DNA from: a virus | Lineage: Duplodnaviria > Heunggongvirae > Uroviricota > Caudoviricetes | Length of the DNA stretch: 64,000 nt | Reading direction: 5' to 3' (one strand) | IMG/VR virus record: IMGVR_UViG_2571042445_000002 | Shown: piece by piece, positions 6,517-62,577 of the stretch | Layout: every line of letters starts with the position of its first letter | Numbering within the stretch: the stretch's first letter is position 1 | Made by a program: the position numbers and the translations under genes | Notes under the pieces: model-generated | Seen by the model: only the letters and a program-made list of their open reading frames with translations | The model's database searches: none | Told to the model about the DNA's origin: nothing

Positions 6517-6564
6517 GCAAAACTGTGTTAGATAATTGAGTTTTGTTTTCTAACACAGTTTTGC
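6517..6564. promoter_or_regulatory. perfect 15-bp inverted repeat (GCAAAACTGTGTTAG ... CTAACACAGTTTTGC) containing the dispersed TGTTAGA/TCTAACA operator-like motif
   Basis: Arms at 6517-6531 and 6550-6564, 18-bp spacer; ends 5 bp before the rdgC start. Confidence 0.5.
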
Positions 6565-6569
6565 TAAAC

Positions 6570-7475
6570 ATGAGATTAGTCGCCTTTAAAAACATATACG
6601 TCTATCGCCTTGCCCGCGAAATAAAACTGGACTCAACCACCGTTAGTGATGCCTTAAGCCAATTCACATTCACTCCATGCGCATCACAAGAAATGGCAAA
6701 AGTCGGATGGGTGCCGGTTCTGGCTGACAACCTGATCCATGAATACCACGGTTTTCTACTTCTCCAGCAACAGCGAGAAATTAAGCTCCTGCCCTCTCAT
6801 GTCATTAAGGAGGAAGTGCAGAAAAAAGTGGAAAAGCTCGAAAATGAGCAATCTCGTAAGCTGAAGAAGTCGGAAAAAAACACCCTGAAGGATGAAGTTC
6901 TCCACTCTTTGTTGCCTCGCGCATTCACTCGCAAATCATTGTCGCGAATCCTTATTGATCGCGACAACTATCTGGTCTTCGTAGAAGCTTCCAGCGCCAG
7001 AAAAGCTGAAGAAATGCTGGCGCTCTTACGTAAATCACTTGGCAGCCTGCCAGTGATTCCATTCACGCCGATAGAACCGCTCGAAATGACTATGACCGAA
7101 TGGTTCAAGTCAACATTTCCTCAAGGCTTTAAAGCAGGCGAAGAAGCCATATTGAAATCTCTGTTCGATGACGGCGGCGCAGTTCGTTGCAAGAAAGTAG
7201 ACCTACAGTCAGAGGAAATAATGACTCATATTGAAGCCGGAAAAGTTGCAACAACAGTTGCAATCAACTGGCAGGACCGCGCGACCTTCAGGTTAAACGA
7301 TGACATGAGCATCAAAGCACTGACGTTTTGCGATGATCTCTATGACCAGAACGATGACATCGACCGTGAAGATGTTGCCCAGCGATTTGATGCTGACTTC
7401 ATTCTGTTCACAAGCGAATTATCCGCGATGTTTAGCTCGCTGGTGGAGGCCATTGGCGGTGAAGCAGAGCATTAA
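6570..7475 (+). CDS. rdgC: recombination-associated protein RdgC
   Basis: N-terminus MRLVAFKNIYVYRL, internal LKKSEKNTLKDEVLHSLLPRAF and DIDREDVAQRFDADFIL, C-terminus GGEAEH closely parallel E. coli RdgC as recalled; no obvious SD. Confidence 0.8.
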   Translation: MRLVAFKNIYVYRLAREIKLDSTTVSDALSQFTFTPCASQEMAKVGWVPVLADNLIHEYHGFLLLQQQREIKLLPSHVIKEEVQKKVEKLENEQSRKLKKSEKNTLKDEVLHSLLPRAFTRKSLSRILIDRDNYLVFVEASSARKAEEMLALLRKSLGSLPVIPFTPIEPLEMTMTEWFKSTFPQGFKAGEEAILKSLFDDGGAVRCKKVDLQSEEIMTHIEAGKVATTVAINWQDRATFRLNDDMSIKALTFCDDLYDQNDDIDREDVAQRFDADFILFTSELSAMFSSLVEAIGGEAEH

Positions 7476-7491
7476 TAACCGACCGCTGGCG

Positions 7492-8139
7492 GTGAGTCTT
7501 TGTGATTATACAGGGAATATGGTTTCCCCCTGGCTGGAACACGGCATTGATGCAGTCATTGTCGATCCGCAACACCAGGAGTCCGGCAGCCAATTGATGG
7601 AGTCAGGTGCTGTACTCACACGTATCAGCGCAATTATTGACAGTGATGAGGTCTACAATTTCCTTCGGAAAAATTTGCACAGAGTTGTATTTTTAGCCGG
7701 TTTCCCTCCGTGTACTGACCTGGCTGTATCTGGCGCACGCTGGTTCGCAGATAAAGCGAAAAAAGATCCGGTTTTCCAGTTCAAAGCAATGCAGGTTGTC
7801 TGGCAGTGTTACGACATTGCAAAGATGATTGGTTGCCCGTACATGATTGAAAACCCGGTCAGCCAAATATCGACATTCTGGCGTAAACCTGATCACATAT
7901 TCCATCCTTATCACTTCACTGCATATTGCAAGGAAGACAATTACACCAAAAAAACATGCCTGTGGAGCGGACAAGGATTCATCATGCCAACTCCGCGAAT
8001 CGACGAGTCGTTAGGTGATCCAGACAACCGAATACACAAGGCACCGCCAGGACCTGAAAGAGCGAATTTTCGTAGCGCGACACCTTACGGTTTTGCAAGA
8101 GCTGTATTTGAAGCAAATAAGGAGGGAATCCGTGGCTGA
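7492..8139 (+). CDS. short C5-cytosine DNA methyltransferase-like protein (start uncertain: GTG 7492 or ATG 7519)
   Basis: Motif GFPPCTDLAVSGARW resembles C5-MTase PCQ motif IV; MIENPV resembles ENV motif VI; N-terminal SAM motif degenerate; only ~215 aa. Confidence 0.45.
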   Translation: MSLCDYTGNMVSPWLEHGIDAVIVDPQHQESGSQLMESGAVLTRISAIIDSDEVYNFLRKNLHRVVFLAGFPPCTDLAVSGARWFADKAKKDPVFQFKAMQVVWQCYDIAKMIGCPYMIENPVSQISTFWRKPDHIFHPYHFTAYCKEDNYTKKTCLWSGQGFIMPTPRIDESLGDPDNRIHKAPPGPERANFRSATPYGFARAVFEANKEGIRG

Positions 8140-9049
8140 TATTGGTGCTAAATTTATTTCTTATAGCGACAATCATCGTCCTGCGGCGGAAGCCACTATC
8201 AGCCATATGCGACGTATTCGCTCGGAGGACGAATTTGATCGCCCCGTCTTTAAGTGGGTCGGCGGCAAATTTTCTGCACTGCCCATTATCTTCGAACACC
8301 TGCCCCACGGAAAACGGTTGATAGAACCTTTCGTTGGAGGTGGCGCTGTTTTCACTAATGCCGGATTTAAAAGCAACCTGCTGAACGATATCAATAATGA
8401 CCTGATTAACTTCTATCAGACATTGCAGCGTGAAGGGCATTCTCTTATCACACTGGCATATCGTTTTTTTCAGGATTACAACTCTGCTGATGCATTTTTG
8501 AATGTTCGCAATGCATTCAACAATGGTGCTTATGATTCCCTTCACCATGCAGCGGCGTTCCTGTATCTCAATCGTCATTGTTTTAATGGCGTCACTCGCT
8601 ATAACCGTAAAGGAGAGTTCAACGTCGGATATGGAAAGCAGAAATCCCCCCACTTCCCTCTCGCGGAAATGGAGGCGTTCCTGGCTGACGATATTTCAAA
8701 GTATTCGGAATTTGTGTCCGGCGATTTTGCTGGTGTAATTGAGGCTGCAGGGAATGATGATGTGATTTTCTGCGATCCCCCCTATGAACCATTGCCCGAC
8801 ACTACCGGATTTACAAATTACTCAGGGCATAGCTTTAGGTTTGAAGATCAACAACGGCTGGTGTCACTGCTGGTGGATGCCCACAGACGCGGAGCGAAAA
8901 TTGTGATAACAAACAGTGGTGCGCCTAACATTCGCGAACTTTACGTTGGCAATGGCTTCAAGGTGTATCCTATGCCATCCCGTCGCTCTGTATCCTGTAA
9001 AGCATCAACCCGAATGATAGCTAACGACATTATAGCCACGCTCAATTAA
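8132..9049 (+). CDS. dam: DNA adenine methyltransferase (Dam family, GATC-type)
   Basis: FKWVGGK...EPFVGGGAVF (motif I) and DPPY (motif IV) in Dam order; GTG start at 8132 preceded by AAGGAGGG; alternative ATG at 8207; overlaps previous gene by 8 nt. Confidence 0.8.
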   Translation: MADIGAKFISYSDNHRPAAEATISHMRRIRSEDEFDRPVFKWVGGKFSALPIIFEHLPHGKRLIEPFVGGGAVFTNAGFKSNLLNDINNDLINFYQTLQREGHSLITLAYRFFQDYNSADAFLNVRNAFNNGAYDSLHHAAAFLYLNRHCFNGVTRYNRKGEFNVGYGKQKSPHFPLAEMEAFLADDISKYSEFVSGDFAGVIEAAGNDDVIFCDPPYEPLPDTTGFTNYSGHSFRFEDQQRLVSLLVDAHRRGAKIVITNSGAPNIRELYVGNGFKVYPMPSRRSVSCKASTRMIANDIIATLN

Positions 9050-9051
9050 GA

Positions 9052-9074
9052 AAAGCCCCATATGGGGCTTTATA
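9052..9074. terminator. hairpin AAAGCCCCA-TAT-GGGGCTTT downstream of dam
   Basis: 8-bp GC stem, short U-tract. Confidence 0.45.
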
Positions 9075-9094
9075 ACATCAAATAAACGCCATTA

Positions 9095-9180
9095 CGGTAC
9101 ACTAATAACACCATTCTGGTACTAAAAAGGCATCAAGGTAGTATCAAAATACCACATGGAACCAAAACGGTGTTATTCCG
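9095..9180. repeat. centromere-like repeats downstream of the ParA/ParG-like operon
   Basis: AACACCATTCTGGTACTAAAAAGG and inverted CCAAAACGGTGTT; near-identical copy AACACCGTTTTGGTACTAAAAGAA at 10300-10323 on the other side of the operon. Confidence 0.45.
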
Positions 9181-9183
9181 GCG

Positions 9184-10105: not shown

Positions 10106-10390
10106 ATCCGTTCCTCGGTGTTATTTTGGTATCAAACTGGTTCCAAACAGAAGCCTTATTGATGCGGTTTTGGCTCTATAGTGGAGTCACTATGCTTTGC
10201 AAAAGTATAACACTAAACACTCTAAATTTACCCTCTGTTGCATCCTGTTTAACACGAAATCAGCCTCAAAGTGGAACCAGACACAAAACAGCACCATAAC
10301 AACACCGTTTTGGTACTAAAAGAACACCAAATTAGAACCATAACAGTATAAAAAAGGCTGCAAATTGCAGCCTTTGAAGATGTAGATTTG
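10106..10390. repeat. repeat-rich region upstream of parA (candidate parS/operator)
   Basis: GGAACCAGA, TGGTTCC, AACACCGTTTTGGTACTAAAAG repeated and inverted relative to 9095-9180. Confidence 0.4.
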
Positions 10391-10756: not shown

Positions 10757-10766
10757 GGCAACCTCA

Positions 10767-11726: not shown

Positions 11727-11740
11727 ATTGCTCCACTTCT

Positions 11741-11911: not shown

Positions 11912-11975
11912 AAGTAAGAAATCTGAAGAGTGAAAATCACAAAGTGGAGAAGATTTAAGAAAAAGGAGGTGTTAG

Positions 11976-14602: not shown

Positions 14603-14680
14603 TTCTAATGTTATGTGTTAGAAAATTAAGATTAAAACACACCATGACGATTTTGTTAAAGAAAATTATTTTTCTAATGC
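14603..14680. promoter_or_regulatory. divergent control region with three copies of TTCTAAT/TGTTAGAAAATTAA operator-like motif and TTGACT -35-like hexamer
   Basis: GTTCTAAT 14603-14610, TGTGTTAGAAAATTAA 14616-14631, TTTTTCTAATGC 14669-14680, TTGACT 14684-14689. Confidence 0.45.
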
Positions 14681-14758
14681 TATTGACTAAATAACAAAGT
14701 GAGTATTGTCACCTCGTCAAAAGAATCTTCACGCCGCGCCCGAATTTAGGGTTTAACC

Positions 14759-22098: not shown

Positions 22099-22330
22099 AA
22101 TGTTGACTATAGGCGAAATGGCTTACAACTAATGTTGACTGTACTCGATCCCGATCACAAAACATTGACTACACGCGACAAGAAATGAGAAAAGATTGAC
22201 TATAAGCGACAAATACTCAATGAAATAGCTGGTTTATCCATTGATCATGTGAAAAAGCTAATAACTAAATCCGCCAGCGTCAATGTTTGTCGCGTATAGT
22301 CAACGCTTAGAATCGCACACAGTCAATGTT
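22099..22330. repeat. incA-like iteron cluster downstream of repA (iterons in both orientations)
   Basis: TTGACTATAGGCG 22103, TTGACTGTACTCG 22135, TTGACTACACGCG 22166, TTGACTATAAGCG 22196; inverted CGCGTATAGTCAACG 22291, CGCACACAGTCAATG 22315. Confidence 0.55.
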
Positions 22331-23213
22331 ATGGATTTCGTTTATGGATCTGGAAACCTATTTTCCGACCATTCTTTATCTCTGAAAATTTAAGATATTC
22401 AACAGCTTCTAAGTCTTTCATGGCTTTACGAATCACACTGTTCTGAACGCTAACCGAGGACTTGAGGTTCAATCTGGCGCGAAGGCGCTCAATACTCACT
22501 GGCGCAGGGTTTGAAGGTAACGCTTCGAAAAACGTATAAAGCACCTTGGCTGTCTCTTTCCTGCCAAGTTTATCGAGCATTTTGAGCTTCAATATTCGCT
22601 TATAGTCAACGTAGTACAACTCAGACAACTGCTTCTGCGGTTGGATTCTTATAATGTCATTTTCAGTATCAAGTTCACTAAATGCCAATAAATTCATCTG
22701 GATATAACGAACATGTTCTTTGCTGGTGGGCAAGTTGAACTTCAGCAACGTCTGCTGAATACGCGTTAGAGAGTCGCCAATGCTCTTGCGAAAAGCCTTG
22801 GACAGCCGCTTCCTTGGATAACCGCAACGATCCACAAATTCAGAGAATGTTAGGGTGATCACACCATCATTGTCTGGTTTATAGTCAAACAATGCAGATG
22901 TAATGCCTATCCAAACCTTAAAATCAGTATCCATATCCAGGCGTGGCCCATGAATCTCAATACCCTGATACCCTTCCTGCTCTACAATCTTCAGGCTGGA
23001 CAGTTCTTCTGTCGCATCAGTTGAGTTAGTTAAACCGGCGTTCTTGCGACGTAAAGCAACACTGGTAGATTTCAATGTGGGAACAAACACCCCAAGCCGC
23101 AACAAAGCTATCGGCTGAATAGTGCTATTATTGTTAGGCTTTAAGCTGTGGATTTCTCCGGTATTCCCTGATATTTCCTCAACGTTCAGAAAGCCTTTTT
23201 TGTCATCTACCAT
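22329..23213 (-). CDS. repA: plasmid replication initiator RepA (P1 RepA-like)
   Basis: TIQPIALLRLGVFVP, HGPRLDMDTDFKVWIGI and C-terminal RLRARLNLKSSVSVQNSVIRKAMKDLEAVEYL parallel P1 RepA as recalled; flanked by iterons. Confidence 0.8.
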   Translation of the reverse strand: MVDDKKGFLNVEEISGNTGEIHSLKPNNNSTIQPIALLRLGVFVPTLKSTSVALRRKNAGLTNSTDATEELSSLKIVEQEGYQGIEIHGPRLDMDTDFKVWIGITSALFDYKPDNDGVITLTFSEFVDRCGYPRKRLSKAFRKSIGDSLTRIQQTLLKFNLPTSKEHVRYIQMNLLAFSELDTENDIIRIQPQKQLSELYYVDYKRILKLKMLDKLGRKETAKVLYTFFEALPSNPAPVSIERLRARLNLKSSVSVQNSVIRKAMKDLEAVEYLKFSEIKNGRKIGFQIHKRNP

Positions 23214-23261: not shown

Positions 23262-23505
23262 TTATCCACAGCCGTCTGAGGGCTGAGAGAATTATCGCAT
23301 ACAGTCAATGTTTATATCGCATATAGTCAACATTAAATCGCACATAGTCAACATTAAATCGCACATAGTCAACATTAAATCGCACATAGTCAATGTTGAT
23401 CGCCATTTAGGCCAGTGATGGCGCGGCTCGCAGCGATCCGGGATCTTCTTTGGATCTTACTGGTTCTCTTTGGGATCTATTTATTGGATCTACCCTGTGG
23501 ATAAA
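23262..23505. other. oriR-like plasmid origin: DnaA boxes, five 21-bp direct iterons, cluster of six GATC sites
   Basis: TTATCCACA 23262-23270; iterons TCGCAYAYAGTCAAYRTT at 23295, 23317, 23338, 23359, 23380; GATC at 23398, 23435, 23442, 23452, 23473, 23487; TGTGGATAA 23496-23504. Confidence 0.6.
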
Positions 23506-36736: not shown

Positions 36737-37343
36737 GTCTAATTATGTTCTTCTTAATTATGATGAGTTAAACGAAAAGGGGCTGGCAAAACTCGTCAAA
36801 GAAATCGGTAAAGGAGGCTACAAGATAGCGAGGGTGATCCCCGCCAGTAATGGCAGGAAGAAAGACGGGATCATGACGCGCACGTTTACCCTTATCGGAA
36901 TCGATGAGCAGACGATGGACGTTCAGGTTAATGATACTGGTGATATTTCTGGTGTAAAACTGAACGGAAAAATTGTTCCTTTCAAGCCAGTTAAAACGCT
37001 GATGGCTTTAGGGCAATCACTGGCTGCTTTATTTAATAAAGGCGCATCATCATTTCAGAAATCATTGGCGCGTAAGTTAGCTCGTGCGGCGAAAGATATT
37101 GATGATGGGAATAAGAAAATAAAAGGCGTTAAGTCCAATGCGCAGAAACTAGCAGAGGCAAAGGAATCTCGCGATGCGATCCGCGAGGATATTGAAAGGG
37201 CCAAAGAAAAATTAAATCAGGTGCAAGGTAATTCAGACCGCGCAACAAGAGAAACTGAAATCATTAGAACCGAGATGGCGCAGGAACTGGCGAAAACTCG
37301 CGTATTGAAAGAAGAAATAGCGCGCCTGGAGGAAGATGCATGA
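36726..37343 (+). CDS. hypothetical protein with C-terminal coiled-coil
   Basis: ATG 36726 with AAGGAG SD; 205 aa. Confidence 0.4.
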   Translation: MSNKSNYVLLNYDELNEKGLAKLVKEIGKGGYKIARVIPASNGRKKDGIMTRTFTLIGIDEQTMDVQVNDTGDISGVKLNGKIVPFKPVKTLMALGQSLAALFNKGASSFQKSLARKLARAAKDIDDGNKKIKGVKSNAQKLAEAKESRDAIREDIERAKEKLNQVQGNSDRATRETEIIRTEMAQELAKTRVLKEEIARLEEDA

Positions 37344-39292
37344 TAAAGAAACCTATTCGAATAAATATCCAGTCCACTTTTGCAGATACGCTCACTGGAT
37401 ATACGCCTAATCGTTGGGTGGCGGAGGATATCACCGAGGATGATTTACTTATCGAGCCTGCGACGCTGGAAGATATCGAGCTGGCCTATATGGGCAACGA
37501 AATTTTGGTAACTACCAATGAGGCAATGTTCGAAGCTATAACCACAACAAAATTGCGGTTAGCGCAAACAATGCGAGCATTTGTCCGGGCGCTTAATCGC
37601 GGCCTGAATGGCACTGACATTGCTGCGGGTACGGATGAGGCAGGTGAATATGAAGACGGACGTAATAGTATCGGTGGGGCAATCATTGGGCGCGTGCGCC
37701 GGGTTGCTAATATCCCTGTTGTAACAGCACAAATACCTCTAACCGATGGACAAACGACAAGCATAATTTTCCATTCTCCAACCGCAGACGGCACAAGAAT
37801 TAAAGGGGATGACGAGCTGGTTGCGTTTCAGTTTCTTCTTAACAAAAGAAACGTTACGCATGTTGTTGCGCCAATCGGTGGGCGTGATGTATCTCTGAGC
37901 CAGGTGTGTCAGGCGCTTTCTAACCTCATTGAGCGTAACAGTGCAAAATTCAAAAAAGCAAAGGAGCGCCAGGACAAAATGAAGGCTGATATTGAGGGGT
38001 ATCTCAATGAAGCCGACAAGCTGGCAGAAGAACGTTCTGTGCTGATTGAGCAGGTTGAAGACGCACAGCGGGGGCTGGCAGAGAAACGCTCAACACTCAA
38101 TGATATGCAGAATAAATTAGACGCACAAAAAGCCCTTAACGCGGAATTGCAGGCTAAGCGCGATAATTTATTGTCAGCTAAGAGCCAAGGAACTAAAGAG
38201 CGAGCCTTCAATGATCAACTGCGACACATAAAACATAATCTTGCTACAGAAGGCCAAACAACGCTGGATAATGGTGCTGTAGTTAAGTATGTCACGTCAG
38301 GCAGTGATAGCTTTGTCACGATTGAGGCACCAGAAGGCAATTTCAGTATTGATGTCAGTGCTGTTAAAGGTGGGAGTTCAGCGGACGCTGCAACCAAATT
38401 ACTTAAAGCCTATCGTGAACATAATGCTGATCAATACAAAGTGGATGTGTTGCCGGGCCAGCCTGAGCCAACTGATCAGCCGCAGCCTGAACAGGAGCCA
38501 CAACCAGCATCACATCCTGATCCCCTGGAGGTTGGTAAATATCGCTATGCGCTCCAATCTCGCCCGGCGGGTGTTGGTGCGGTTCCTGAAGGAAATAAAG
38601 CTGTACTTGACCGTCCTGATCAGGCTGATCCGTATTACGAATATGCTCGTCACGGAATCATTACGTATGACCGCAAACTGACAGATGAAGAAGTCAGTCA
38701 GTACGAGTTGCTATATCTCCCTGGTGACGATGAATTGAAAGAGATTGCAGGCGAATTGGTTGCGTCCAGTATGTCGAACCATATTGATGGCTACGTTGAT
38801 CTGTTTGGAAGCGACTTGAAAACCTTTAAGGCGCAGATAAAAATCCTCTTCCGCAAAGCATTTCCTAACGTCGCTTATCCACTTGGAGATGGGGAGAACC
38901 TTTTTATAATGGATATCTATAACGCGCTTCAGAATCAATCAGAAGTAGTCGAAGCTGAACAGACATTAGATCAGGCGCCGGAAGCAGTACAAGAACCAGA
39001 ACCTGAGTCTGAACCTGAATCCCCCCAAGAGTCTGATACAGGTTCAGATGGGCCAGTAGTTAGTGAGGCTGATCAGGAGGCGGACAGTGCGCTGGAATAT
39101 CTGAAATCCGTGCCGTTGCAGTTTACGTCCCGTGATTTGACGGTGATTAGAGCGGAGTTTGATCGCATTCAGGAGGCAGCTAATGTTCTTATCAACGCAG
39201 GTCGATATGATGAGAACGAGTCACTTGTTGGTGCGGCAGCCGATCACCTGATCAACATTCTGGCAGAGATACAACAAGGGGGCGTGTGGTGA
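37340..39292 (+). CDS. large hypothetical protein, possible DarA-like virion internal protein
   Basis: 650 aa; size and operon context (after holin-like genes, as in the P1 lydA-lydB-darA arrangement recalled); central coiled-coil, acidic Pro-rich linkers. Confidence 0.4.
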   Translation: MIKKPIRINIQSTFADTLTGYTPNRWVAEDITEDDLLIEPATLEDIELAYMGNEILVTTNEAMFEAITTTKLRLAQTMRAFVRALNRGLNGTDIAAGTDEAGEYEDGRNSIGGAIIGRVRRVANIPVVTAQIPLTDGQTTSIIFHSPTADGTRIKGDDELVAFQFLLNKRNVTHVVAPIGGRDVSLSQVCQALSNLIERNSAKFKKAKERQDKMKADIEGYLNEADKLAEERSVLIEQVEDAQRGLAEKRSTLNDMQNKLDAQKALNAELQAKRDNLLSAKSQGTKERAFNDQLRHIKHNLATEGQTTLDNGAVVKYVTSGSDSFVTIEAPEGNFSIDVSAVKGGSSADAATKLLKAYREHNADQYKVDVLPGQPEPTDQPQPEQEPQPASHPDPLEVGKYRYALQSRPAGVGAVPEGNKAVLDRPDQADPYYEYARHGIITYDRKLTDEEVSQYELLYLPGDDELKEIAGELVASSMSNHIDGYVDLFGSDLKTFKAQIKILFRKAFPNVAYPLGDGENLFIMDIYNALQNQSEVVEAEQTLDQAPEAVQEPEPESEPESPQESDTGSDGPVVSEADQEADSALEYLKSVPLQFTSRDLTVIRAEFDRIQEAANVLINAGRYDENESLVGAAADHLINILAEIQQGGVW

Positions 39293-41245: not shown

Positions 41246-41677
41246 TCACCGCATTGGTGTGACAGATACGACGATATTTTTATTCAGTTGATGCAGTGCC
41301 AGCTCGACAGTTTCAACTTTCGATGAATGTTCGACGTCGAGAAGCCGATCAATCTGAGTTCCATTTTTTCCGAGTTTGCGCGCCAACTCTGCTTTGCGTG
41401 TGCCGGTTTCTATCATCGCGTTGTGGAGTGCAGCCTTCATTGCTGGTAGCACTGGCAAAGAGACAACGTACTCACCTTCTTTTGGCTCGCTACCAGTGGG
41501 AACAGGTCGGCGTTCTTCAATCTCAATCGCAACCGCTGCGACCAATCCATAACCAGCCTCAAGCAACGCTTCTTCAACTGAGTCACCCACGGAATTAAAC
41601 AATGGTAGGTCGCGGCATGATACGACATACGCGCCGGTTTTGTCGTCGCGCTCCAGTTTTACCGGATAGTTAAACAT
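41246..41677 (-). CDS. hicB: HicB-family antitoxin
   Basis: MFNYPVKLERDDKTGAYVVSCRDLP N-terminal fold segment and C-terminal HTH (RKAELARKLGKNGTQIDRLL) parallel E. coli HicB as recalled. Confidence 0.7.
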   Translation of the reverse strand: MFNYPVKLERDDKTGAYVVSCRDLPLFNSVGDSVEEALLEAGYGLVAAVAIEIEERRPVPTGSEPKEGEYVVSLPVLPAMKAALHNAMIETGTRKAELARKLGKNGTQIDRLLDVEHSSKVETVELALHQLNKNIVVSVTPMR

Positions 41678-41707
41678 AGAGAAGCTCCTAGTGAAAAAGG
41701 CTGGGGC

Positions 41708-41890
41708 TTAAAGCCCCAGGTCCTTCATTATTTTCTTGCGTAGCGGTTCAGGCATTTCCTTTGAACCGTGGTCCGGGAAAACCGACCGCTTTCCGTTCAG
41801 GTTCACTTTCTGATGACTGCCGCCACCAGGCGCTTTCCTGAACTCTGCCCCTTGCTGGATTAACCAGCGTTTGAACTCTGAATACTTCAC
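41708..41890 (-). CDS. hicA: HicA-family toxin
   Basis: 60 aa; KYSEFKRWLIQQGA...GGSHQKVNLNGKRSVFPDHGSKEMPEPLRKKIMKDLGL parallels HicA; GTG start with AAGGAAA SD. Confidence 0.7.
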   Translation of the reverse strand: MKYSEFKRWLIQQGAEFRKAPGGGSHQKVNLNGKRSVFPDHGSKEMPEPLRKKIMKDLGL

Positions 41891-44820: not shown

Positions 44821-44945
44821 GCTAAAAGCTAGCTTAATTTTCTAACACAGTGTGTTTTTATACACTGTTGATCCGACGGCACGTGATCGAGTAGGATCGC
44901 GGTCACTGCTCCGGTAGCGACTGCCAAAAAAAGCAAAAGCCGCTG

Positions 44946-46036: not shown

Positions 46037-46081
46037 TGTATGTTAGAAAATTAAATTGATGTTTCTAATCAAGAATGTATG
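46037..46081. promoter_or_regulatory. operator-like inverted motif TGTTAGAAAATTAAATTGATGTTTCTAAT
   Basis: Half-sites TGTTAGAAA and TTTCTAAT in inverted orientation; additional TTTCTAATG at 46131. Confidence 0.5.
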
Positions 46082-46399
46082 ATTTATATCGTCACTAAAA
46101 AACAGCATCTGATAAAAATTCTGTTGATCTTTCTAATGTTCAGGCTTATATTCATGCCGTCGTAGCAAATTCTGCGACCGGGTTTAGCAGCCTGAATGTT
46201 AGTGCGGACAACCGCAGATATCCGATATTGCGGTATTTTTGTGTCCGTAAAACCGCGTTACGCCCAAATTATGGTGGGGCGTGATGGGGAGGCTTCGGCC
46301 TGCTGGTTTCACTAACGCCAGTCTGCTAACCCCGTCACGTCCTGCCACCTGTTTAGCAGCGGGTAGCAGGTTGTTAAACCTGTTAGTGAGGCCGTAACT

Positions 46400-46624
46400 A
46401 TGGTTAATGCCAATCCTTGCTCACGTCCAGAATTCATCTGGCGTTTTCACTCCCTGCAAAAACACTGCGATCACTTCGCAATTGCCGCAACTGAAAAAGA
46501 AGCCCGTTCTCTGATCCCTGATCAGTATGGCGTTCTCACTGGTCGTTTCTCTACTTCCCCACAACCAAACACCAATCCCTGGTATCGCAATATTACCAAT
46601 CCCGGCATTGCGGAGGCTCACTGA
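46400..46624 (+). CDS. small protein translationally coupled to antirepressor (icd-like position)
   Basis: 74 aa; ATG 46400 with GTGAGG SD; stop overlaps ant start (ATGA). Confidence 0.4.
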   Translation: MVNANPCSRPEFIWRFHSLQKHCDHFAIAATEKEARSLIPDQYGVLTGRFSTSPQPNTNPWYRNITNPGIAEAH

Positions 46625-47331
46625 TGGATATCTGCATTCTCGAAAAGCCATCAATGACCAGCATTGAGATCGCGGAGCTGGTGGGAAAACGTCATGACAA
46701 TGTGAAACGCACTATTGAGACATTAGACAAAGGTGGCGTTATTGTTCGTCCTCAAATTGAGGTTTTCGAAAAAATCAATAACTTAGGACTACGACGTAGT
46801 GTTGAGGCTTACGTCTTCGAAGGCGAGCAAGGCAAGCGCGATAGCATTATCGTCGTCGCGCAGCTCTCTCCCGAATTCACCGCCCGGCTGGTGGACCGCT
46901 GGCGCGAACTGGAAGAACAAGTACGCCAGCCGTTGACCGAAATAGAGATGATCGCTGCAATGGCTGCAAATGCAGTTCAGCAGCAAAAGCGGCTTCATGT
47001 TGTTGAGTCAAAGGTTAGCCAGGTTGCTGAAACCGTCGAGCAGATCAAGAAGGGCAACATGCCAGAAGGTTACATTGGCTATCGTCAGTTAGCGGCGAAA
47101 TGTGGCCTGACTGAAGCCAAATGCCGTAACCTGGTCAACGCTAACCGGATTCCCACAGATACGCATGAGTTTTTGACGCCAGAGGGGGTATTGTCGCGTC
47201 GTACTATTGTGGCCTTATCTCCCTTCATGAATGCCTTTACCCTGATGATGTCGGAGGCTGAACACCGAGGAAAACGCTGGTATCACCCAAGGATGGGACA
47301 ATTCCAGGTGATCGGTTGGGGAGGCGAGTGA
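46624..47331 (+). CDS. phage antirepressor (Rha/Ant-like N-terminal domain)
   Basis: N-terminus ILEKPSMTSIEIAELVGKRHDNVKRTIETL matches Rha-family pattern; SD GGAGG 9 nt upstream. Confidence 0.6.
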   Translation: MDICILEKPSMTSIEIAELVGKRHDNVKRTIETLDKGGVIVRPQIEVFEKINNLGLRRSVEAYVFEGEQGKRDSIIVVAQLSPEFTARLVDRWRELEEQVRQPLTEIEMIAAMAANAVQQQKRLHVVESKVSQVAETVEQIKKGNMPEGYIGYRQLAAKCGLTEAKCRNLVNANRIPTDTHEFLTPEGVLSRRTIVALSPFMNAFTLMMSEAEHRGKRWYHPRMGQFQVIGWGGE

Positions 47332-48051: not shown

Positions 48052-48238
48052 GCTCCGAATGAAAAAAGAGCAATAACTATGTTGAGAATGTGATTTCTAT
48101 TACACCAAACATTATTAAACGGCATTCATCTTTAACTTTATTCAATGTATTATCTAACAGAAAAGTTAAGTTGCGCTAAGTTAATGATAACACTGGTTAT
48201 TATTGGTTTGCGTTATTTATTTGAGAAAAGAGAAAGTT

Positions 48239-48736
48239 ATGAAAAAAGCAATATTAGCGACTATTGTTTGTGCATTTGCATTATCAGGATGCGCTCCGGT
48301 TCAGACATACAACAAGCCTCAGCAAGTAAAACAGTTTGTTAAACGCCCAGCATTCCCTGTAGAGGAATATCAGGCATTGCCGAAAAAAGGCACAGGTAAG
48401 GTTAAGGGGGAATTATTTGGAGTAACTCGCGGAGGGGATGTGAAGATTGGTGCTGGCTCCAATATCATACTGCGTCCGTATACTTCATATATCAAAAATA
48501 CCCCCAAAATTGATTACGACACTCAGACCTTAGAAATAATCGACGGCAGGGTTGCGGAATATGACAGAACTGTCCTGACTGATGCTCAAGGCAAATTTGA
48601 GTTCGAAAACGTACCACCAGGCCAGTATGAAGTGATTGGTTCGTTCAGTTGGTATGCTGGAAATTTCCCGCAAATCGTTCTTCTGAACAAAATCATTACC
48701 GTTAAGAACGGTGATGTTATCCAGGTTCAACCATGA
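48239..48736 (+). CDS. lipoprotein (possible carboxypeptidase-regulatory-like beta-sandwich domain)
   Basis: Signal peptide MKKAILATIVCAFALSGC with lipobox LSGC; C-terminal GKFEFENVPPGQYEV motif; AT-rich. Confidence 0.55.
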   Translation: MKKAILATIVCAFALSGCAPVQTYNKPQQVKQFVKRPAFPVEEYQALPKKGTGKVKGELFGVTRGGDVKIGAGSNIILRPYTSYIKNTPKIDYDTQTLEIIDGRVAEYDRTVLTDAQGKFEFENVPPGQYEVIGSFSWYAGNFPQIVLLNKIITVKNGDVIQVQP

Positions 48737-55685: not shown

Positions 55686-55721
55686 CAGATAAGGAGCGGC
55701 CCCAACCGGGGCCGAATTTGA

Positions 55722-56156: not shown

Positions 56157-56158
56157 CC

Positions 56159-56419
56159 ATGCGGAAGAATCGTAGGTTTACGATCGACGACTTAAAAGCG
56201 TACTCACAAGGGAAGGGATACGCCCTTGAATACCACCGTTATAAGCGGGTATTTACCCTGCGGCATATAGAAAACCCTTCGAAATGGGGATGGATTTATT
56301 TTCCGCACACTGACGATAAGCTGGTGGGACTTGTTGATGATTTATCCTATGAAGGATGGATGATTGCTATCGACAAGGCGGTTACGGAAATTAACGAACC
56401 TGATAAAATAAACCATTAA
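56159..56419 (+). CDS. hypothetical protein
   Basis: 86-aa ORF, 2-nt gap from previous gene. Confidence 0.4.
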   Translation: MRKNRRFTIDDLKAYSQGKGYALEYHRYKRVFTLRHIENPSKWGWIYFPHTDDKLVGLVDDLSYEGWMIAIDKAVTEINEPDKINH

Positions 56420-56593
56420 AAATAACAAGTTGGGTAAATGACATACAATTTACCCGGCTTGTTGACCCGCATCACCATTTACTCTAAAAACAAGTCCGAC
56501 CTGTTGCATCCGCCTATCTCTTCAGTAGTATTCCCCTCGGTTTTGATAAAACTAACGCTCTTGTTATTATCGTGTTCATGATTTCAGGAAGTT

Positions 56594-56609
56594 TGTGTTA
56601 GAAATTTGA
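56594..56609. promoter_or_regulatory. operator-like motif TGTGTTAGAAATTTGA abutting the VRR-NUC start codon
   Basis: Motif ends at the ATG 56609; no SD present. Confidence 0.45.
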
Positions 56610-57052
56610 TGCGAAGACGCAGGCATCATAGTGCGTATTCTGAAATATCCCCGCACGCTGCTGCACTGAGAGAGTTAGAAAGAAATCCTGACTTATTAAA
56701 ACGGAATTACGAACATTACGAACAGGTTCGCGTTCTGGATTGGCTGTATCGCAACATGCGATACGTGTATGAGCACACACACTCAACACCGAACGGCGGC
56801 CTGAGAGGCAAAAGGACAGCCATTAAGATGGTGGCAGAAGGTCAGAAGAAGGGCTATCCGGACCTTTCTATTGACCTTGCTCGTGGTGGGTATCACGGAA
56901 TGCGCATTGAGATGAAGCACGGGAGAAACCGTCTGACTCCCGAACAGCTCGTCTGGATGACTCGCCTCACGGAAGCAGGCTATTACTGCTTTGAGGCGCG
57001 CAGTGCCGATGAAGCCATAAAAGCTATCACTGAATATGTAAATCTTGATTAA
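56609..57052 (+). CDS. VRR-NUC domain nuclease
   Basis: YEHYEQVRVLDWL ... GYPDLSIDLARGGYHGMRIEMKHGRNRLTPEQ matches VRR-NUC (PD-(D/E)xK) pattern. Confidence 0.55.
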   Translation: MRRRRHHSAYSEISPHAAALRELERNPDLLKRNYEHYEQVRVLDWLYRNMRYVYEHTHSTPNGGLRGKRTAIKMVAEGQKKGYPDLSIDLARGGYHGMRIEMKHGRNRLTPEQLVWMTRLTEAGYYCFEARSADEAIKAITEYVNLD

Positions 57053-57066
57053 ACGGAGAAATCGTT

Positions 57067-57575: not shown

Positions 57576-57646
57576 ACGGTCATAAACCCGCCAGTTGGCG
57601 GGTTTTTTGTTGCCTGAGTCTTTTTATTGAAATTGCATACTAATAA

Positions 57647-57670
57647 AATATGTTAGAAAACTAATTTCAA
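57647..57670. promoter_or_regulatory. operator-like motif AATATGTTAGAAAACTAATTTCAAG upstream of 57685 gene
   Basis: Core TGTTAGAAAA 57651-57660. Confidence 0.45.
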
Positions 57671-57684
57671 GAAAGGGAACAAAC

Positions 57685-58893
57685 ATGAGTCAGCAAGTAG
57701 AATCATCAAGCCTGGAGATCATCTCAACCGCAATTGAAACGCTGCGGACACAAATCGCGCTTATACAGAAACGAAATCCGGGCGATGACCTGTCAAAGCG
57801 ACTGCATGAGAGCGTCATTGCCACTACAGATAACCTGGTGGCGGAAATCAACCAGCTCCTTGATGATGGGGCAGTTGATTACAATAAGCTGGTGGATCAG
57901 TTTGAGGAATATCAGCAAGCCGTTAATGATGGCTTGATCCGTTTTTCTCAAGTCACTGGTGTATCAGCGACAGTTGAAAGCCTGGGGGATGCAGTTAATC
58001 AATTTGCCGCGAATATGCGTAATGAGATCGGCAATCTGGAGGCGCGTCTTGAGCAGGCAAATACACTGCGCAAATCTGCTGAAGTCGATTTGAGTCGTTA
58101 CAAAAAAGACTATCCGCCAAGCCTGACAAAACGACTGGATGTTGCGGAGAAAGATAACCGCACGCTGAAAAGAGAGCGTCGGGAACTAAAAGAGCGTTTA
58201 ACCAAGCTAAATCAGCAATGCGTTGAGTATCAAGGCGAACTCGTCACACTGCGTAAAAAGTTAGCAGCGGCGCAGAGCATTATTGAAACATTGAAACGAG
58301 AGTGCTCAGAGCTTGGTCATGATCTGAATCGCGCCTGTGGCATGGGGCAAAGGCCAGAGACATTCCCGCTAATGTATGACGGAAGAGAAGCTATTGCCTA
58401 TATCCATGAGTTTCCGCATGGTCTGGTCGCGGAGACTGGGCAACGTGGCGAAGCGTTGCTGACGGCAAATTACCATCAGCAAATCAGAACCAGCCGCCTG
58501 CTGACGATGGATGTGATCCCGTCAGTATGGGGAACGCCGCTTTACTACCGAATTCCTGGCTTCGAAACTGACTGGAATACCGACATAGACGAATGTCTGG
58601 CAGATAAAATTATGGCGTACCTTGAAACGGATTTTCCACGCTTGCATCGCCGGATTATGGACTCTAAGGATGCACCGATCGACGAATTGAAAATGCGTCC
58701 AGAGACGTTGGAGGCAATCAAGCAGACTGAGTTTGATACAGTGTTCAGTGTGGCCTGCATTCCAAGCAGCTTTCATGAAAGCATTCCGTTCATGCAGGGC
58801 GATCGCCGTCAGGAAATAATTGATGCTTGCCGGGTATGGGCGAACGAGTGGGATAAGAAGAACGGTGGAGTTGAAAATCTTTACGGGAAATAA
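57685..58893 (+). CDS. hypothetical protein with N-terminal coiled-coil
   Basis: 402 aa; SD AAAGGGAAC. Confidence 0.45.
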   Translation: MSQQVESSSLEIISTAIETLRTQIALIQKRNPGDDLSKRLHESVIATTDNLVAEINQLLDDGAVDYNKLVDQFEEYQQAVNDGLIRFSQVTGVSATVESLGDAVNQFAANMRNEIGNLEARLEQANTLRKSAEVDLSRYKKDYPPSLTKRLDVAEKDNRTLKRERRELKERLTKLNQQCVEYQGELVTLRKKLAAAQSIIETLKRECSELGHDLNRACGMGQRPETFPLMYDGREAIAYIHEFPHGLVAETGQRGEALLTANYHQQIRTSRLLTMDVIPSVWGTPLYYRIPGFETDWNTDIDECLADKIMAYLETDFPRLHRRIMDSKDAPIDELKMRPETLEAIKQTEFDTVFSVACIPSSFHESIPFMQGDRRQEIIDACRVWANEWDKKNGGVENLYGK

Positions 58894-58930
58894 TGTATTA
58901 GAAAATTAAAATTGTTTTTCTAACATATTG
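58893..58930. promoter_or_regulatory. operator-like palindrome ATGTATTAGAAAATTAAAATTGTTTTTCTAACATATTG
   Basis: Half-sites ATTAGAAAA and TTTTCTAAC inverted around AATTAAAATTG; second copy AGTGTTAGAAAGTAAATTTT at 59044-59063. Confidence 0.5.
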
Positions 58931-58981
58931 ATTATGTAGTTAACTTAACATAGAATTTTTCGTGCTGGTGGGGAGCTTCCC

Positions 58982-59044
58982 ATGTCGCTTGCGGGTTTGA
59001 TAGTCACTTCATTGTCTTTCCCCACCAGCATCAAACAATTTTAA
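58982..59044 (+). CDS. 20-codon hydrophobic small ORF (MSLAGLIVTSLSFPTSIKQF) enclosed by an 11-bp hairpin; candidate type I toxin-like peptide
   Basis: Stem 58964-58974 / 59019-29 sequesters the GGGGAG SD-like element; not in ORF track (below 60 aa). Confidence 0.25.
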   Translation: MSLAGLIVTSLSFPTSIKQF

Positions 59045-59553
59045 GTGTTAGAAAGTAAATTTTAAGGTAAGGGAAAGCTCCGGCACCGTGCAAATACATG
59101 CCCGGCAGGTTTAGTGCGTAAAGTGGTTTCAGCGAGAGCATTTTACGGAGTAAACGACAGTGACTTGAGCCACGGAAGGTCTTTTTATGGTGTTCATTGA
59201 TGATGATCTGGCAGTGAGTATGTTAAGTGGGCCAGGCTGCATCGGGTCATCATCAGTGCACATCCTCAACGTTAAGGAGGCGCAGAGTTGGGTTTTCCTC
59301 TTATTTTGCTGACTCTGAGTCTCCTTAACGTTGCGGTAATGCACCTATGCGGATGTGGCCTTGCATTGTGTCTTGAAAGAATGGGGTAAGGCCGGGGATA
59401 TCCTCAGGGGGAGGCACCCCCGCTGCAACGAACAGCCACAGACGGCAGTCGAGTGATGGAAACGTGCAAAGACTTTAAACCTCGTTACGGCTGGCGTGGC
59501 AAACGCGACAACCGAGACAGAGCGGTGACGGGCGGAGAGAGAGCCGCTTCAAG

Positions 59554-59628
59554 ATAAAAGCCGACTATGGATTCCTTTCTGCGGGCCTTTGAAAGTGAAT
59601 CTTGCTCAGGCAGTCGGCTTTTATGTTG
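59554..59628 (+). terminator. hairpin ATAAAAGCCGACT ... AGTCGGCTTTTAT (13-bp stem, large loop) with U-tract
   Basis: Perfect 13-bp complementarity 59554-59566 / 59612-59624. Confidence 0.4.
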
Positions 59629-59753
59629 ATACGTAGCGATAACCGCGACAGGCGCGGCGGTAAGTATGGCGGGGTTATTCCTTCCCCGTTGAGGACACCG
59701 AGTTGCCAGGTTGACCATACGCCTAAGTGGCAATACCGCGAGTGGGATATTTG

Positions 59754-59776
59754 CCCACCTTCGGGTGGGTGTTTTT
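59754..59776 (+). terminator. rho-independent terminator CCCACC-TTCG-GGTGGG + TGTTTTTT
   Basis: UUCG tetraloop hairpin followed by T6 run; implies a + strand transcript across the ORF-poor region. Confidence 0.65.
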
Positions 59777-60238
59777 TCAGTGTTTTCGTCATGGTTAGCG
59801 ACTTTGCGGCGGTTTAGAACCCGACCATTAAAGTAAATGCAAACGATGATCTGATGATGGTAGCGGCCTAAGAAGCCTGACGCCACGGGGTATGAGTCGT
59901 CCCCCGTCAAAAAATCGACCGCAGAGTGTCCCCGTCTGTGTATTAGGGAACGGGGAGGCATAACAGGCAAGGGCGCTGGTGTGATTAACCAGATGAATGA
60001 GAAGGGTCAGGTCTTTCTGGTCAGCGCCCTTACCTGTTACGTCCCTCCCGCGTAACAGCCATTGGTTAATGGCTTTCTGGGATAATGTCTTGTAACGGGT
60101 ATATCCCGTCATGCTGAAGGCGCTAATCACGCTGGAAGCCAGGGTTATGCATCCCCTGTTACCGAATTGCAGCCAGGGCGCGGTGCGCCGAAAAGCATAC
60201 GGAGGTGGAAGCCCTCGCCGGAGACGTACCCGGCAAGT

Positions 60239-60313
60239 GATGGTGTAGCTCAGTGGTAGAGCAGTTGGCTGTTAACCAACTGGTCGGTGGTTCGAATCCA
60301 CTCACCATCGCCA
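60239..60313 (+). tRNA. tRNA-Asn (anticodon GTT)
   Basis: Cloverleaf parsed manually: acceptor GATGGTG/CACCATC, D-arm GCTC-AGTGGTA-GAGC, anticodon loop CTGTTAA, T-loop TTCGAAT, 3' CCA encoded. Confidence 0.8.
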
Positions 60314-60315
60314 AT

Positions 60316-60391
60316 GCCGGTTTAGCTCAGTTGGTAGAGCGCCTGCCTTGTAAGCAGGATGTCAGCGGTTCGAGTCCGTTAACCGGCACCA
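60316..60391 (+). tRNA. tRNA-Thr (anticodon TGT)
   Basis: Acceptor GCCGGTT/AACCGGC, anticodon stem CCTGC/GCAGG with loop CTTGTAA, T-loop TTCGAGT, CCA encoded; 2 nt after tRNA-Asn. Confidence 0.8.
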
Positions 60392-60392
60392 A

Positions 60393-60479
60393 CACAACAG
60401 GTAAGGGTATTTTGCGACGTCGGAGATCGCCGAGCTTGGCAGAGGGTTCGAATCCCTACGAAGTACCCTTACCGTTGTG
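60393..60479 (+). other. tRNA-like element: canonical T-loop (GGTTCGAATCC) and D-arm-like hairpin enclosed by a 16-17 bp inverted repeat; lacks anticodon arm (pseudo-tRNA or structured RNA)
   Basis: IR CACAACAGGTAAGGGTA 60393-60409 / TACCCTTACCGTTGTG 60464-60479; cannot be folded into a full cloverleaf. Confidence 0.3.
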
Positions 60480-60579
60480 ATGAATGCACAGGCTGATGTG
60501 CCGCAACTACAGTAGTGCGCGCTTTGCGGGGCTTGCTACAACCCTGTGTCGGAGTTCAGCACCGACCATCACAATCACT

Positions 60580-60666
60580 GGAGAGTAGGGAGCATGGTGC
60601 TCAAGCGGTCTTGAAAACCGTCCCATTGCGCAAGCGATGATGGTTCGATTCCATTACTCTCCGCCA
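60580..60666 (+). tRNA. atypical tRNA-like gene, possibly tRNA-Ser(TGA) with long variable arm and unusual D-arm
   Basis: Acceptor GGAGAGT/ACTCTCC + G + CCA; anticodon arm GCGGT-CTTGAAA-ACCGT; T-arm GATGG-TTCGATT-CCATT; D-arm atypical (5-bp stem, 3-nt loop). Confidence 0.35.
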
Positions 60667-60922
60667 GCGCAACGTTAAGAGTATTTGGCTAATTAAGCGA
60701 ATGCCGGAAGCAGAACCGGATCACCAAATGCTCTTACCATTGCGGTGAATGCGGCTAAGCGCACGCGGAACAGTTAAAACAGTAAAGGTGGTCTTTTTAC
60801 TGGCGTAACGAGAATCCATAAGTGATCCGGCGTTAATTGTTAACTGGTTAACGTCACCGGGAGGCACCCGGCACCGCAACCTAACAGCAATGGCGTTTTG
60901 TCTTAAAAGGTGGCTGCAAGTG

Positions 60923-61051
60923 ATGGATTTTTGGGCGTTTGCCGATAAAAACCCGGAGTGGACATTATTGTTTCTGCTGGTGGTTGCATACGGGGTAGAG
61001 CAAGCGGCAAAAGCCTTACGCGGTTCTGGCAAAAAGCGTAAGCGTAATTAA
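60923..61051 (+). CDS. 42-aa small membrane protein candidate (MDFWAFADKNPEWTLLFLLVVAYGVEQAAKALRGSGKKRKRN)
   Basis: Single hydrophobic helix plus basic C-terminus; SD AAGGTGG; located between tRNA-like genes; below ORF-track size cutoff. Confidence 0.3.
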   Translation: MDFWAFADKNPEWTLLFLLVVAYGVEQAAKALRGSGKKRKRN

Positions 61052-61060
61052 CAGTAATCT

Positions 61061-61136
61061 GGCCCTTTAGCTCAGTGGTTAGAGCGGGCGACTCATAATC
61101 GCACGGTCACCGGTTCAAGTCCGGTAGGGGCCACCA
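61061..61136 (+). tRNA. tRNA with CAT anticodon, ileX-like (tRNA-Ile2/lysidine type or elongator Met)
   Basis: GGCCCTTTAGCTCAGTGGTTAGAGCGGGCGACTCATAATCGC...GGTTCAAGTCCGGTAGGGGCCACCA closely resembles E. coli ileX as recalled. Confidence 0.8.
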
Positions 61137-61588
61137 CATTTGGTTGTAACACGGCGTATGGCACATGCGTCGTTAGCGGTCTGGTGTAGCTGTTAGGTAC
61201 CTTTTACTAACACTGCATGGGCACACCAGGTAGCCGGAATGTGCAAGCCCCGTTCATAGCGTCGGACTGCGGATTCACCATCCTGGCGATTCGGTGTGAC
61301 AGCCGGAAGAGCACGGCGTACAACAGGAAAAGGCGTTTAATTAGCGTGAGCGCCGTTTCCGTTGTGGTAATTGCGGCTATGCGCTCGTGACGAAGCCATT
61401 TTCATTCACTACGTTCTGATAAGTGTCGTCGCCGGGCGTGGCTAACCTGGCAGGTGGAGGCACCACCGCCACAACTCCTTTCAATTCATCATATAGCCGC
61501 TCAGGCTGTAACCCTTAATTAATACGAAGTTACGACGTCACTACCGGTTCAGCCGGGGGATAGTCGCGCGTGTAAAAAAGGAGACGTT

Positions 61589-62164
61589 ATGTTAACGGCG
61601 AACGATAACGCGTATTCAGAAGATGATCTCGTTTTGAGTGACTTTATAGGGCGACGAGAATGCTGGACGCAAAAGCGCGAGGAGCTTTATGCAGCGTTAG
61701 TTCGTAAAGGCGTCAACATCGAAACCGCACAGAACGGTGATATGACAGTGGTAAGTGTTGGACTGCACGGCGTAAGTGTGTCAGCAATCAATCATGAGCC
61801 GTACATTGCGTTATCCGAGTCGATGGTAAGGTTAGTTAAGTTCCTGAAGTACACAGAAGCGAATAACGTGATCATCGCCAAAAAGAACATCCCGTTCTCA
61901 TCGGCCTTTTACTGGATGATGAAGGGGCTTGATGCCCGGCGAACATCATGGCCTAAAGGGAGCTATATATCGATGCTCCGTGGCAGTGTTGGTAGCAAAG
62001 AAAAGCTCGTCGAATTCCTGCCGGAAGAGGCATTCGATATTGTTGAAGGTTGTGATGTGATGGTTATGCCTCGCCTGGTAATGATGAATGGGGATTTACA
62101 GGCGCAGACAGACTGGTTTGCAACTGGAGTTGATATTATCGCTACTGACTGGGAGGTTTTTTGA
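61589..62164 (+). CDS. protein with C-terminal DUF2829/Tad2-like domain (candidate anti-defence signal sponge)
   Basis: C-terminal half SAFYWMMKGLDARRTSWPKGSYI ... NGDLQAQTDWFATGVDIIATDWEVF fits the recalled DUF2829 pattern (ARRxxW ... DWEV); start may be internal. Confidence 0.4.
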   Translation: MLTANDNAYSEDDLVLSDFIGRRECWTQKREELYAALVRKGVNIETAQNGDMTVVSVGLHGVSVSAINHEPYIALSESMVRLVKFLKYTEANNVIIAKKNIPFSSAFYWMMKGLDARRTSWPKGSYISMLRGSVGSKEKLVEFLPEEAFDIVEGCDVMVMPRLVMMNGDLQAQTDWFATGVDIIATDWEVF

Positions 62165-62544
62165 TGTACGAGGCTACTAAATTACGCACTGAGGATGCGA
62201 TGCACATTGGTTGGGACATCATCACCTGCAAGATAACATCATGCAAGGCTACACGCACAGACGCCGGACACAAGAGCACAATATCAGGTTATGTCGTGAT
62301 GTCAGTCAGGAGTGTGCGCATACGCTTCAGATGGAAAGCCTGCCAGGTTACATCATCAATGCCGCTTACCGTCGAGCAGGATTATTTATGCTTACCCGAA
62401 ATAGACGGAGCGTTGCTGGTGGGCAATAGTGGTCGAAAAGCCGATTTTGAAGCCAGTCTGAAGATGGCGCAGGCGGTGATCAACAAACATAAAGGGAAGT
62501 GGGAGGCAAAAGTTAAGCATGTTGTTCGTTTATCCCGCTGGTAG
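62161..62544 (+). CDS. hypothetical protein
   Basis: 127-aa ORF overlapping previous stop. Confidence 0.35.
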   Translation: MMYEATKLRTEDAMHIGWDIITCKITSCKATRTDAGHKSTISGYVVMSVRSVRIRFRWKACQVTSSMPLTVEQDYLCLPEIDGALLVGNSGRKADFEASLKMAQAVINKHKGKWEAKVKHVVRLSRW

Positions 62545-62577
62545 TGTTAGCAAATTGATATTAATTTTCTAATACAT
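62543..62577. promoter_or_regulatory. operator-like motif AGTGTTAGCAAATTGATATTAATTTTCTAATACAT
   Basis: Inverted half-sites GTTAGCAAA / TTTTCTAAT; TTTTCTAATACAT resembles the P1 C1 operator core (CTCTAATAAAT) as recalled. Confidence 0.5.

Follow-up and report, generated by a model that had tools for sequence, protein, structure and literature searches.

Bacteriophage P1 possesses 22 dispersed, asymmetric 17-bp operators, through which the repressor C1 represses repL, lpa and other genes (PMC8546580). For phage D6, the prototype of the D6 group of plasmid prophages, no operators are annotated in the GenBank record, and full-text literature searches for the motif described below and for D6 in combination with a C1 repressor returned nothing relevant, with the P1 and D6 genome papers outside the coverage of these searches. 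The 64,000-nucleotide stretch of virus record IMGVR_UViG_2571042445_000002 (the window hereafter, meaning the whole stretch of DNA analysed) is approximately 90% identical to Escherichia phage D6 (MF356679) and 99.7% identical to the 92.8-kb Escherichia coli plasmid NZ_LR890273.1, identities on which it is assigned to the D6 type within the P1 family of plasmid prophages. A plasmid search with it matched 1,115 records, P1/P7-type relatives included. Dispersed over this DNA is a repeated word whose copies are very probably the operators at which the element's own prophage repressor, of the C1 type, acts. Comparison with P1 and with nearer relatives thereby supports a C1 repressor regulon of P1-like phages which uses an operator word of its own, so far unannotated.

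The original prediction, made from the letters of the sequence, had proposed a dispersed operator-like motif, often in inverted half-site pairs, and the repetition proved to be far above expectation. With at most one mismatch, TGTTAGAAAAT has 15 matches in the window as compared to 1.72±1.30 (maximum 5) in dinucleotide-preserving shuffles, and the exact 9-mer TTTTCTAAC occurs in seven copies where 0.64 are expected. Within the intergenic set of 8,452 bp (13.2% of the window; GC 0.448 versus 0.482 in coding DNA), which was derived from a gene map combining the PGAP annotation of the 99.7% identical plasmid with the D6 proteins, 13 matches to TGTTAGAAAAT at the same threshold stand against 0.33±0.59 (maximum 3) in 500 dinucleotide shuffles, so that the objection that AT-rich intergenic DNA by itself would give such a frequency fails. 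Alignment of 21 half-sites, 13 from the window and 8 from the remainder of the same plasmid, yields the consensus tgTGTTAGAAAATtAAnnT, an asymmetric word of 17-19 bp with information running from -2 to +16. Conservation extends beyond the search word, since all 21 half-sites have A at +13, 17 have T at +16 and 15 have A at +12; T0, T2, T3, A4 and G5 are likewise invariant. When the window was scanned with the derived position weight matrix, 14 half-sites scored at least 16 bits versus 0.27 expected, and none scored between 12 and 16 bits. The matches at 17630 and 21118, in or at the edge of coding DNA, were taken as chance because the extended consensus is missing there; the match at 51098 is also located within coding DNA.

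The window sites, eight single (one with a degenerate partner and two weak) and three paired, are given below with their D6 counterparts and with the operators annotated in the P1 reference (AF234172) at the equivalent positions; genes of the window are named via the D6 proteins.

6524-6542 (+) and 6539-6557 (-): candidate bivalent operator between baseplate gene 5 (end 6510) and rdgC/hrdC (ATG 6570), which is followed by dcm and dam; pair kept in D6 at 64116/64132; in P1, Odmt (Op68), itself upstream of uhr-hrdC-dmt.
14614-14632 (+): candidate monovalent operator, 27.8 bits, in the space from which the capsid gene (14759) and the orf52 homologue (- strand, start 14599) diverge; conserved in D6; an extra site compared to P1.
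14663-14681 (-): weak candidate half-site AGCATTAGAAAAATAATTT, 16.0 bits; doubtful because it is degraded in D6.
44831-44849 (-): candidate monovalent operator between pro (end 44820) and repL (45020); D6 counterpart at 22467; in P1, OrepL (Op53).
46039-46072: candidate c4-icd-ant operator consisting of a strong half-site at 46039-46057 (+) and a degenerate partner (core 46060-46070) at the canonical 19-bp spacing; D6 counterpart at 21263, an exact 14-mer; abuts a -35-like hexamer as in P1, where Oc4 (Op51) is its positional and geometric analogue.
48143-48161 (-): weak candidate site, 16.1 bits, flanked by orf16 (- strand, start 48045; peptidoglycan hydrolase-like) and by the 48239 gene, which precedes darB; region not homologous in D6.
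56594-56612 (+): candidate monovalent operator at the 5' edge of the pmgM (VRR-NUC) homologue; D6 counterpart at 11361; in P1, O26/pmgL-pmgM (Op82).
57649-57667 (+): candidate monovalent operator 18 bp upstream of pmgS (57685); D6 counterpart at 10318; in P1, OpmgR (Op86).
58894-58912 (+) and 58909-58927 (-): candidate bivalent operator directly 3' of pmgS, heading a 2.7-kb region with tRNA-Asn, -Thr, -Ser and -Met(CAU); D6 counterpart at 9069; in P1, the bivalent Oban (Op72ab), which heads the tRNA/tci/ban operon.
59044-59062 (+): extra candidate monovalent operator, 23.1 bits, 117 bp downstream of the bivalent site; D6 counterpart at 8913.
62543-62561 (+) and 62558-62576 (-): candidate bivalent operator between orf5 (end 62544) and lpa (62652); D6 counterpart at 4632; in P1, Olpa (Op94).

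The remainder of plasmid NZ_LR890273.1, which lies outside the window and is numbered separately (L004), adds further sites and, just past the window end, the gene at the position of c1.

L004, pair: perfect candidate operator before ref, equivalent to Oref of P1.
L004, single site: on the stop codon of ref, the position of Omat in P1.
L004, pair: after the ppp homologue.
L004, single site: after cre.
L004, two sites: between the lox-like site and the c1-position gene, equivalent to Oc1 of P1.
L004:2724-3761 (-): c1-position gene for a 345-aa protein, at 37223-38260 of NZ_LR890273.1, after pacA-pacB and facing the lox/cre-like site.

Taken together, the element has about 22 half-sites, 14 in the window and 8 outside, as compared to 22 operators in P1. 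In both systems an asymmetric word of approximately 17 bp is used singly or as inverted pairs, and the common targets would comprise hrdC-dmt, repL, c4-icd-ant, pmgL/M, pmgR/S, the tRNA/ban operon, lpa, ref and c1. The predicted inverted pairs were recovered with a strict geometry, as all five strong pairs (6524, 58894 and 62543 in the window; 19468 and 24586 in L004) show the same orientation, + followed by -, and cores that begin at a constant distance of 19 bp; no pair in reverse order exists among the half-sites of the window and L004. This arrangement differs from that of the P1 Oban pair, in which the half-sites overlap with an 11-bp offset and the TCTAA cores have the opposite relative order, whereas the paired half-sites described here are non-overlapping.

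The original prediction had placed the repressor gene outside the window, and there the 345-aa product of the c1-position gene was found to be a distant C1 homologue. Over 241 aligned residues it is 21% identical to P1 C1 (E 1e-7), both proteins belong to phrog_1678, Pfam PF27008 (Phage_P7_repressor_C1) is assigned to it in precomputed tables and the corresponding D6 orf1 is annotated as 'prophage repressor, similar to P1 C1'. A local Pfam scan of C1 found no family. Since NCBIfam phage_rep_C1 (NF041318) is matched with only 24 bits versus a cut-off of 500, the protein is regarded as a homologue and not as an equivalog of C1. As in P1/P7, the gene of this homologous repressor is located beside pacB and lox-cre.

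Phage D6 displays the same motif at the same places, with 16 matches to TGTTAGAAAATTAA at up to two mismatches, where about 1.2 are expected, at orthologous positions. Three more distant metagenomic/assembly contigs (L007, L008 and L009), with C1 proteins 50%, 48% and 43% identical respectively, carry TGTTAGAAAA in front of c1 and, in one or another of them, also close to lpa, pmgS, the VRR-NUC gene or cre; the VRR-NUC gene of L007 is preceded by a site, and the L008 sites include 17988 (pmgS equivalent), 16575/16700 (58894 equivalent) and 14475 (lpa equivalent). These relatives came via protein search and contig look-ups; a scan of genome contigs with the C1 protein found no relatives. Five lineages with C1 proteins 43-100% identical were aligned over the DNA upstream of c1, where mean column identity is 47%; nothing but the lox-like palindrome and two half-sites, TTTTCTAA.A and TGTTAGAAA, forms invariant islands there. 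Upstream of lpa, the five-lineage alignment again has TTTTCTAA as its conserved island. The D6-type motif is thus present in five lineages with a D6-clade C1 (43-100% identity). P1 contains no D6-type site, nor does a P1-clade element whose C1 is 53% identical and which retains ATTRCTCTAATMAATT-type sites. The P1 operator consensus ATTGCTCTAATAAATTT (immC), in turn, has no match at up to three mismatches in the window, versus 14 in P1 48001-94800. Because D6-type and P1-type words are reciprocally exclusive across the clades, the motif type is read as following the C1 clade.

A second, separate motif marks the late operons.

3236, 11935, 14690, 23520, 31032, 35912, 39702, 42071 and 48778 (all +): AATMACAMACT with a -10-like element after it, preceding the late operons g7, upfC, capsid, pmgB, R, lydA, ddrB, prt and darB.

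The pattern has 13 matches versus 4.7 expected, nine of which are these, and probably represents the Lpa-dependent late promoter of D6-type elements. It is distinct from both the P1 -22 box AAGTGACTT and the operator motif, and P1-type late promoters (AAGTGACTT-N-TANNNT) are absent from the late operons of the window. As the late operons share AATMACAMACT, the late regulon is considered distinct. Both the capsid gene and darB fall within it and are, for this reason, probably controlled only indirectly, through lpa. In the divergent region upstream of the capsid gene, the late-promoter-like motif at 14690-14700 separates the 14614 site from the gene, and this site may control either the orf52 homologue or the capsid gene.

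Promoter-like elements lie at or near several of the sites. TTGATG-16-TATGAT (46056-46083) abuts the 46039 operator, TTGATT-17-TAGAAT (58928-58956) abuts the bivalent operator at 58894-58927, the 57649 site overlaps the -10-like hexamer of TTGAAA-16-TATGTT (57627-57654), and hexamers at 59065-59038 abut or overlap the 59044 site. At the sites 44831, 48143, 56594 and 62543, promoter-like hexamers lie at a distance of 18-38 bp; they are the GATC-rich TTGATC...TAGGAT (44868-44897) which follows the 44831 site, those at 48227-48199 and 56543-56570, and TTCTCA-16-TATCAT (62594-62621), located 18 bp downstream of 62543-62576.

Several observations weigh against operators of a C1-type repressor. The best promoter-like matches for repL, lpa and pmgM do not cover the site but are 18-24 bp away from it, and a strict sigma-70 scan gave no good match at 6524 and 14614. 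The loci named in the original prediction were all recovered, with the restriction that 46128-46140 holds only the degenerate CATTAGAAAGA and that the 48143 and 14663 sites are weak and not conserved in D6. The repressor gene sits outside the window, and searches for counterparts of Lxc and Coi found none, as the orf13 homologue (56159-56419) at the lxc position shows no similarity to P1 Lxc and no coi-like reading frame occurs upstream of c1. In addition, the operator word is not significantly similar to that of P1, to which it is unrelated beyond the TCTAA pentamer. The partial likeness to the P1 C1 operator core that had first been noted was therefore abandoned as evidence, since the best ungapped match to the consensus, 9/17, is reached by 73% of shuffles; the case rests instead on position, on homology of the repressor and on co-variation of motif and clade.

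It is unlikely that the sites bind another phage regulator of D6-type elements, such as a Rha/Roi-type antirepressor-like protein, a small helix-turn-helix protein or an early activator. These elements do encode further DNA-binding proteins (the Rha-family gene at 46624-47331 and a 'DNA-binding protein' in L004), the word at the sites is not that of the P1 operator and the link between C1 and motif is drawn from sequence comparison. However, the sites stand where P1 has its C1 operators, among them the ones preceding c1 and the bivalent operator at the head of the tRNA operon, the motif type switches together with the C1 clade, and the two islands upstream of c1 are invariant though the accessory genes differ among the lineages. 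A repeated promoter or AT-rich sequence without a dedicated binder, be it shared sigma-70 elements, a small mobile repeat or chance, would be in keeping with the -10-like strings within the word (TAGAAAAT, GATAAT) and with the overlap of several sites with promoter-like hexamers. Such an origin is highly improbable in view of the 40-fold enrichment over intergenic-only shuffles, the information spread over 17-19 bp, the fixed pair spacing, the islands which stay invariant in otherwise diverged DNA and the absence of the motif from P1, which uses the same host polymerase. That the motif forms part of Lpa-activated late promoters, in the manner of the P1 -22 box, finds some ground in a few sites that neighbour late-type genes, namely those at the capsid gene, at pmgS and in front of darB, but is next to negligible as an explanation, because AAGTGACTT is unlike the motif, the late operons have AATMACAMACT instead, and TGTTAGAAAAT sites precede c1, c4-icd-ant, repL, ref and lpa, in both orientations and as inverted pairs.

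The reading as operators of one C1-type repressor, which the original prediction had likewise envisaged, draws its support from the orthology to P1 operators, the neighbouring C1 homologue with sites of its own upstream, the tracking of the clade and the distinct late motif. Sequence comparison points to C1 as the binder and to repression as the consequence of binding. One C1 molecule would occupy each half-site, and two would sit on inverted half-sites with core starts 19 bp apart. In the lysogen, C1 would shut the promoters that overlap or flank the sites and thereby silence repL, c4-icd-antirepressor, rdgC together with the methylases, pmgM, pmgS, the tRNA operon, lpa and c1 itself, most likely by promoter occlusion or as a roadblock, with autoregulation at c1. 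Late genes (heads, tails, lysis, packaging and darB), equipped with the different Lpa-type promoter motif, would be silenced indirectly via lpa. Relief would be brought about through the c4-controlled antirepressor operon, as in P1 (by analogy with PMC8546580 and the P1 annotation). The regulon as first proposed, which was to embrace anti-defence, lytic and packaging operons, is hence narrowed, in that mainly early and immunity units (rdgC-dcm-dam, repL, c4-icd-ant, pmgM, pmgS, the tRNA operon and lpa) would be controlled, packaging and structural genes only indirectly via lpa. Direct control of anti-defence genes is not borne out, as darB has its own late-type motif (48778).

The likely operator set would define the immunity specificity of P1-like phage-plasmids of the D6 group, which are common in E. 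coli, and predicts which promoters are silent in the lysogen. Differing operator words could explain a possible heteroimmunity of D6-type and P1-type elements despite their common architecture. The comparison would also provide a natural example of a repressor and about 22 operators whose specificity shifted jointly at fixed positions.

A more surprising lead than the regulon itself comes from the predicted fold of C1. Tus binds a long asymmetric site as a monomer. When Foldseek was run with an AlphaFold2-predicted structure of a D6-type C1 (P0002, with 80% identity to the L004 C1 and a mean predicted local distance difference test score (pLDDT) of 85.7), complexes of E. coli Tus with Ter DNA were the only significant PDB matches (probability 1.00, E 1.4e-7 to 6e-6); the hit ranked next had E 0.13. 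For the model of a P1-type C1 (P0012, pLDDT 79.2), Tus was again the only significant match, with E 6e-8 to 1e-7 and a template modelling (TM) score of 0.44-0.48 in a full-length alignment. No link was recovered at the level of sequence, as hmmsearch of a C1 profile versus the PDB sequences misses Tus, hhalign gives a probability of 6.8%, with the retrieved Tus homologues too alike among themselves for a useful profile, and C1 has no Pfam match to the Tus family PF05472; no paper in the literature collection searched links C1 and Tus. The two systems share the predicted fold and long asymmetric DNA sites, and a Tus-like monomer fits the long asymmetric operator words described here. They differ in that Tus arrests the replication fork, whereas repression of transcription is predicted for C1, and no Ter-like consensus is present here. 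D6-type C1 proteins further possess a helical C-terminal extension of approximately 70 aa, which P1-type C1 proteins do not have and which, speculatively, could couple two molecules.

It is tentatively proposed from these models, with slightly less than even chances, that the C1 family, P1-type and D6-type alike, is a structural relative of Tus, each repressor being a monomer which clamps a long asymmetric word, and that the D6 lineage replaced the word at all of the approximately 22 positions, kept the positions and added the helical C-terminal domain, which may couple two molecules on inverted pairs of fixed spacing. If true, this would explain the unusual biology of P1 C1 with its monomer and asymmetric operators and would give the Tus fold, otherwise isolated, a relative among the immunity repressors of phages; if confirmed, the fold would explain in structural terms how a monomer can recognize long asymmetric operators.

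Besides the sites, the loci they accompany show features of their own. Rfam identifies the C4 antisense RNA at 46267-46352 and the a1b1 targets at 46146-46198, and the combination of the c4-a1b1 target and the C4 RNA upstream of icd and a Rha/Roi-type antirepressor gene constitutes a P1-like immI module; a second icd-like gene is found in the rest of the plasmid (L004 26051-26266). Next to the repL operator, the stretch 44845-44905 harbours the inverted repeat ACACAGTGTGTTTTTATACACTGT, followed by three GATC sites in a promoter-like stretch, an arrangement which recalls the Dam-methylation sites annotated in the PkilA/P53 region of P1.

The 2.7 kb between 58894 and 61588 are almost without protein-coding genes and hold tRNA-Asn, -Thr, -Ser(UGA) and -Met(CAU), the four tRNA genes predicted by ARAGORN at 60239-61136. 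An Rfam E-value scan of 58800-61650 for a dicF-like RNA gave only tRNAs and sub-threshold matches, and an STnc100-like match at 60741-60878 remained below threshold (40.8 bits versus 47). Within 58894-61588 the window is about 130 bp shorter than NZ_LR890273.1, and it is without tciA/tciB, which D6 has. Local insertions and deletions of this kind, together with differing weak sites, distinguish the window from D6; the gene at 48239-48736, which encodes a 'carboxypeptidase-like regulatory domain' protein between orf16 and darB and has no D6 counterpart there, is another, and it shares the non-conserved stretch with the weak 48143 site.

Elsewhere in the window, two toxin-antitoxin pairs on the - strand (HigB/HigA-like and HicA/HicB-like) are inserted among tail and head genes at 2487-3152 and 41246-41890. 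Beside a RepB-family gene (approximately 22329-23087, - strand), the region 23312-23393 contains 3.9 tandem copies of the 21-bp unit TTAAATCGCACATAGTCAACA, which are probably the iterons of the plasmid replicon.

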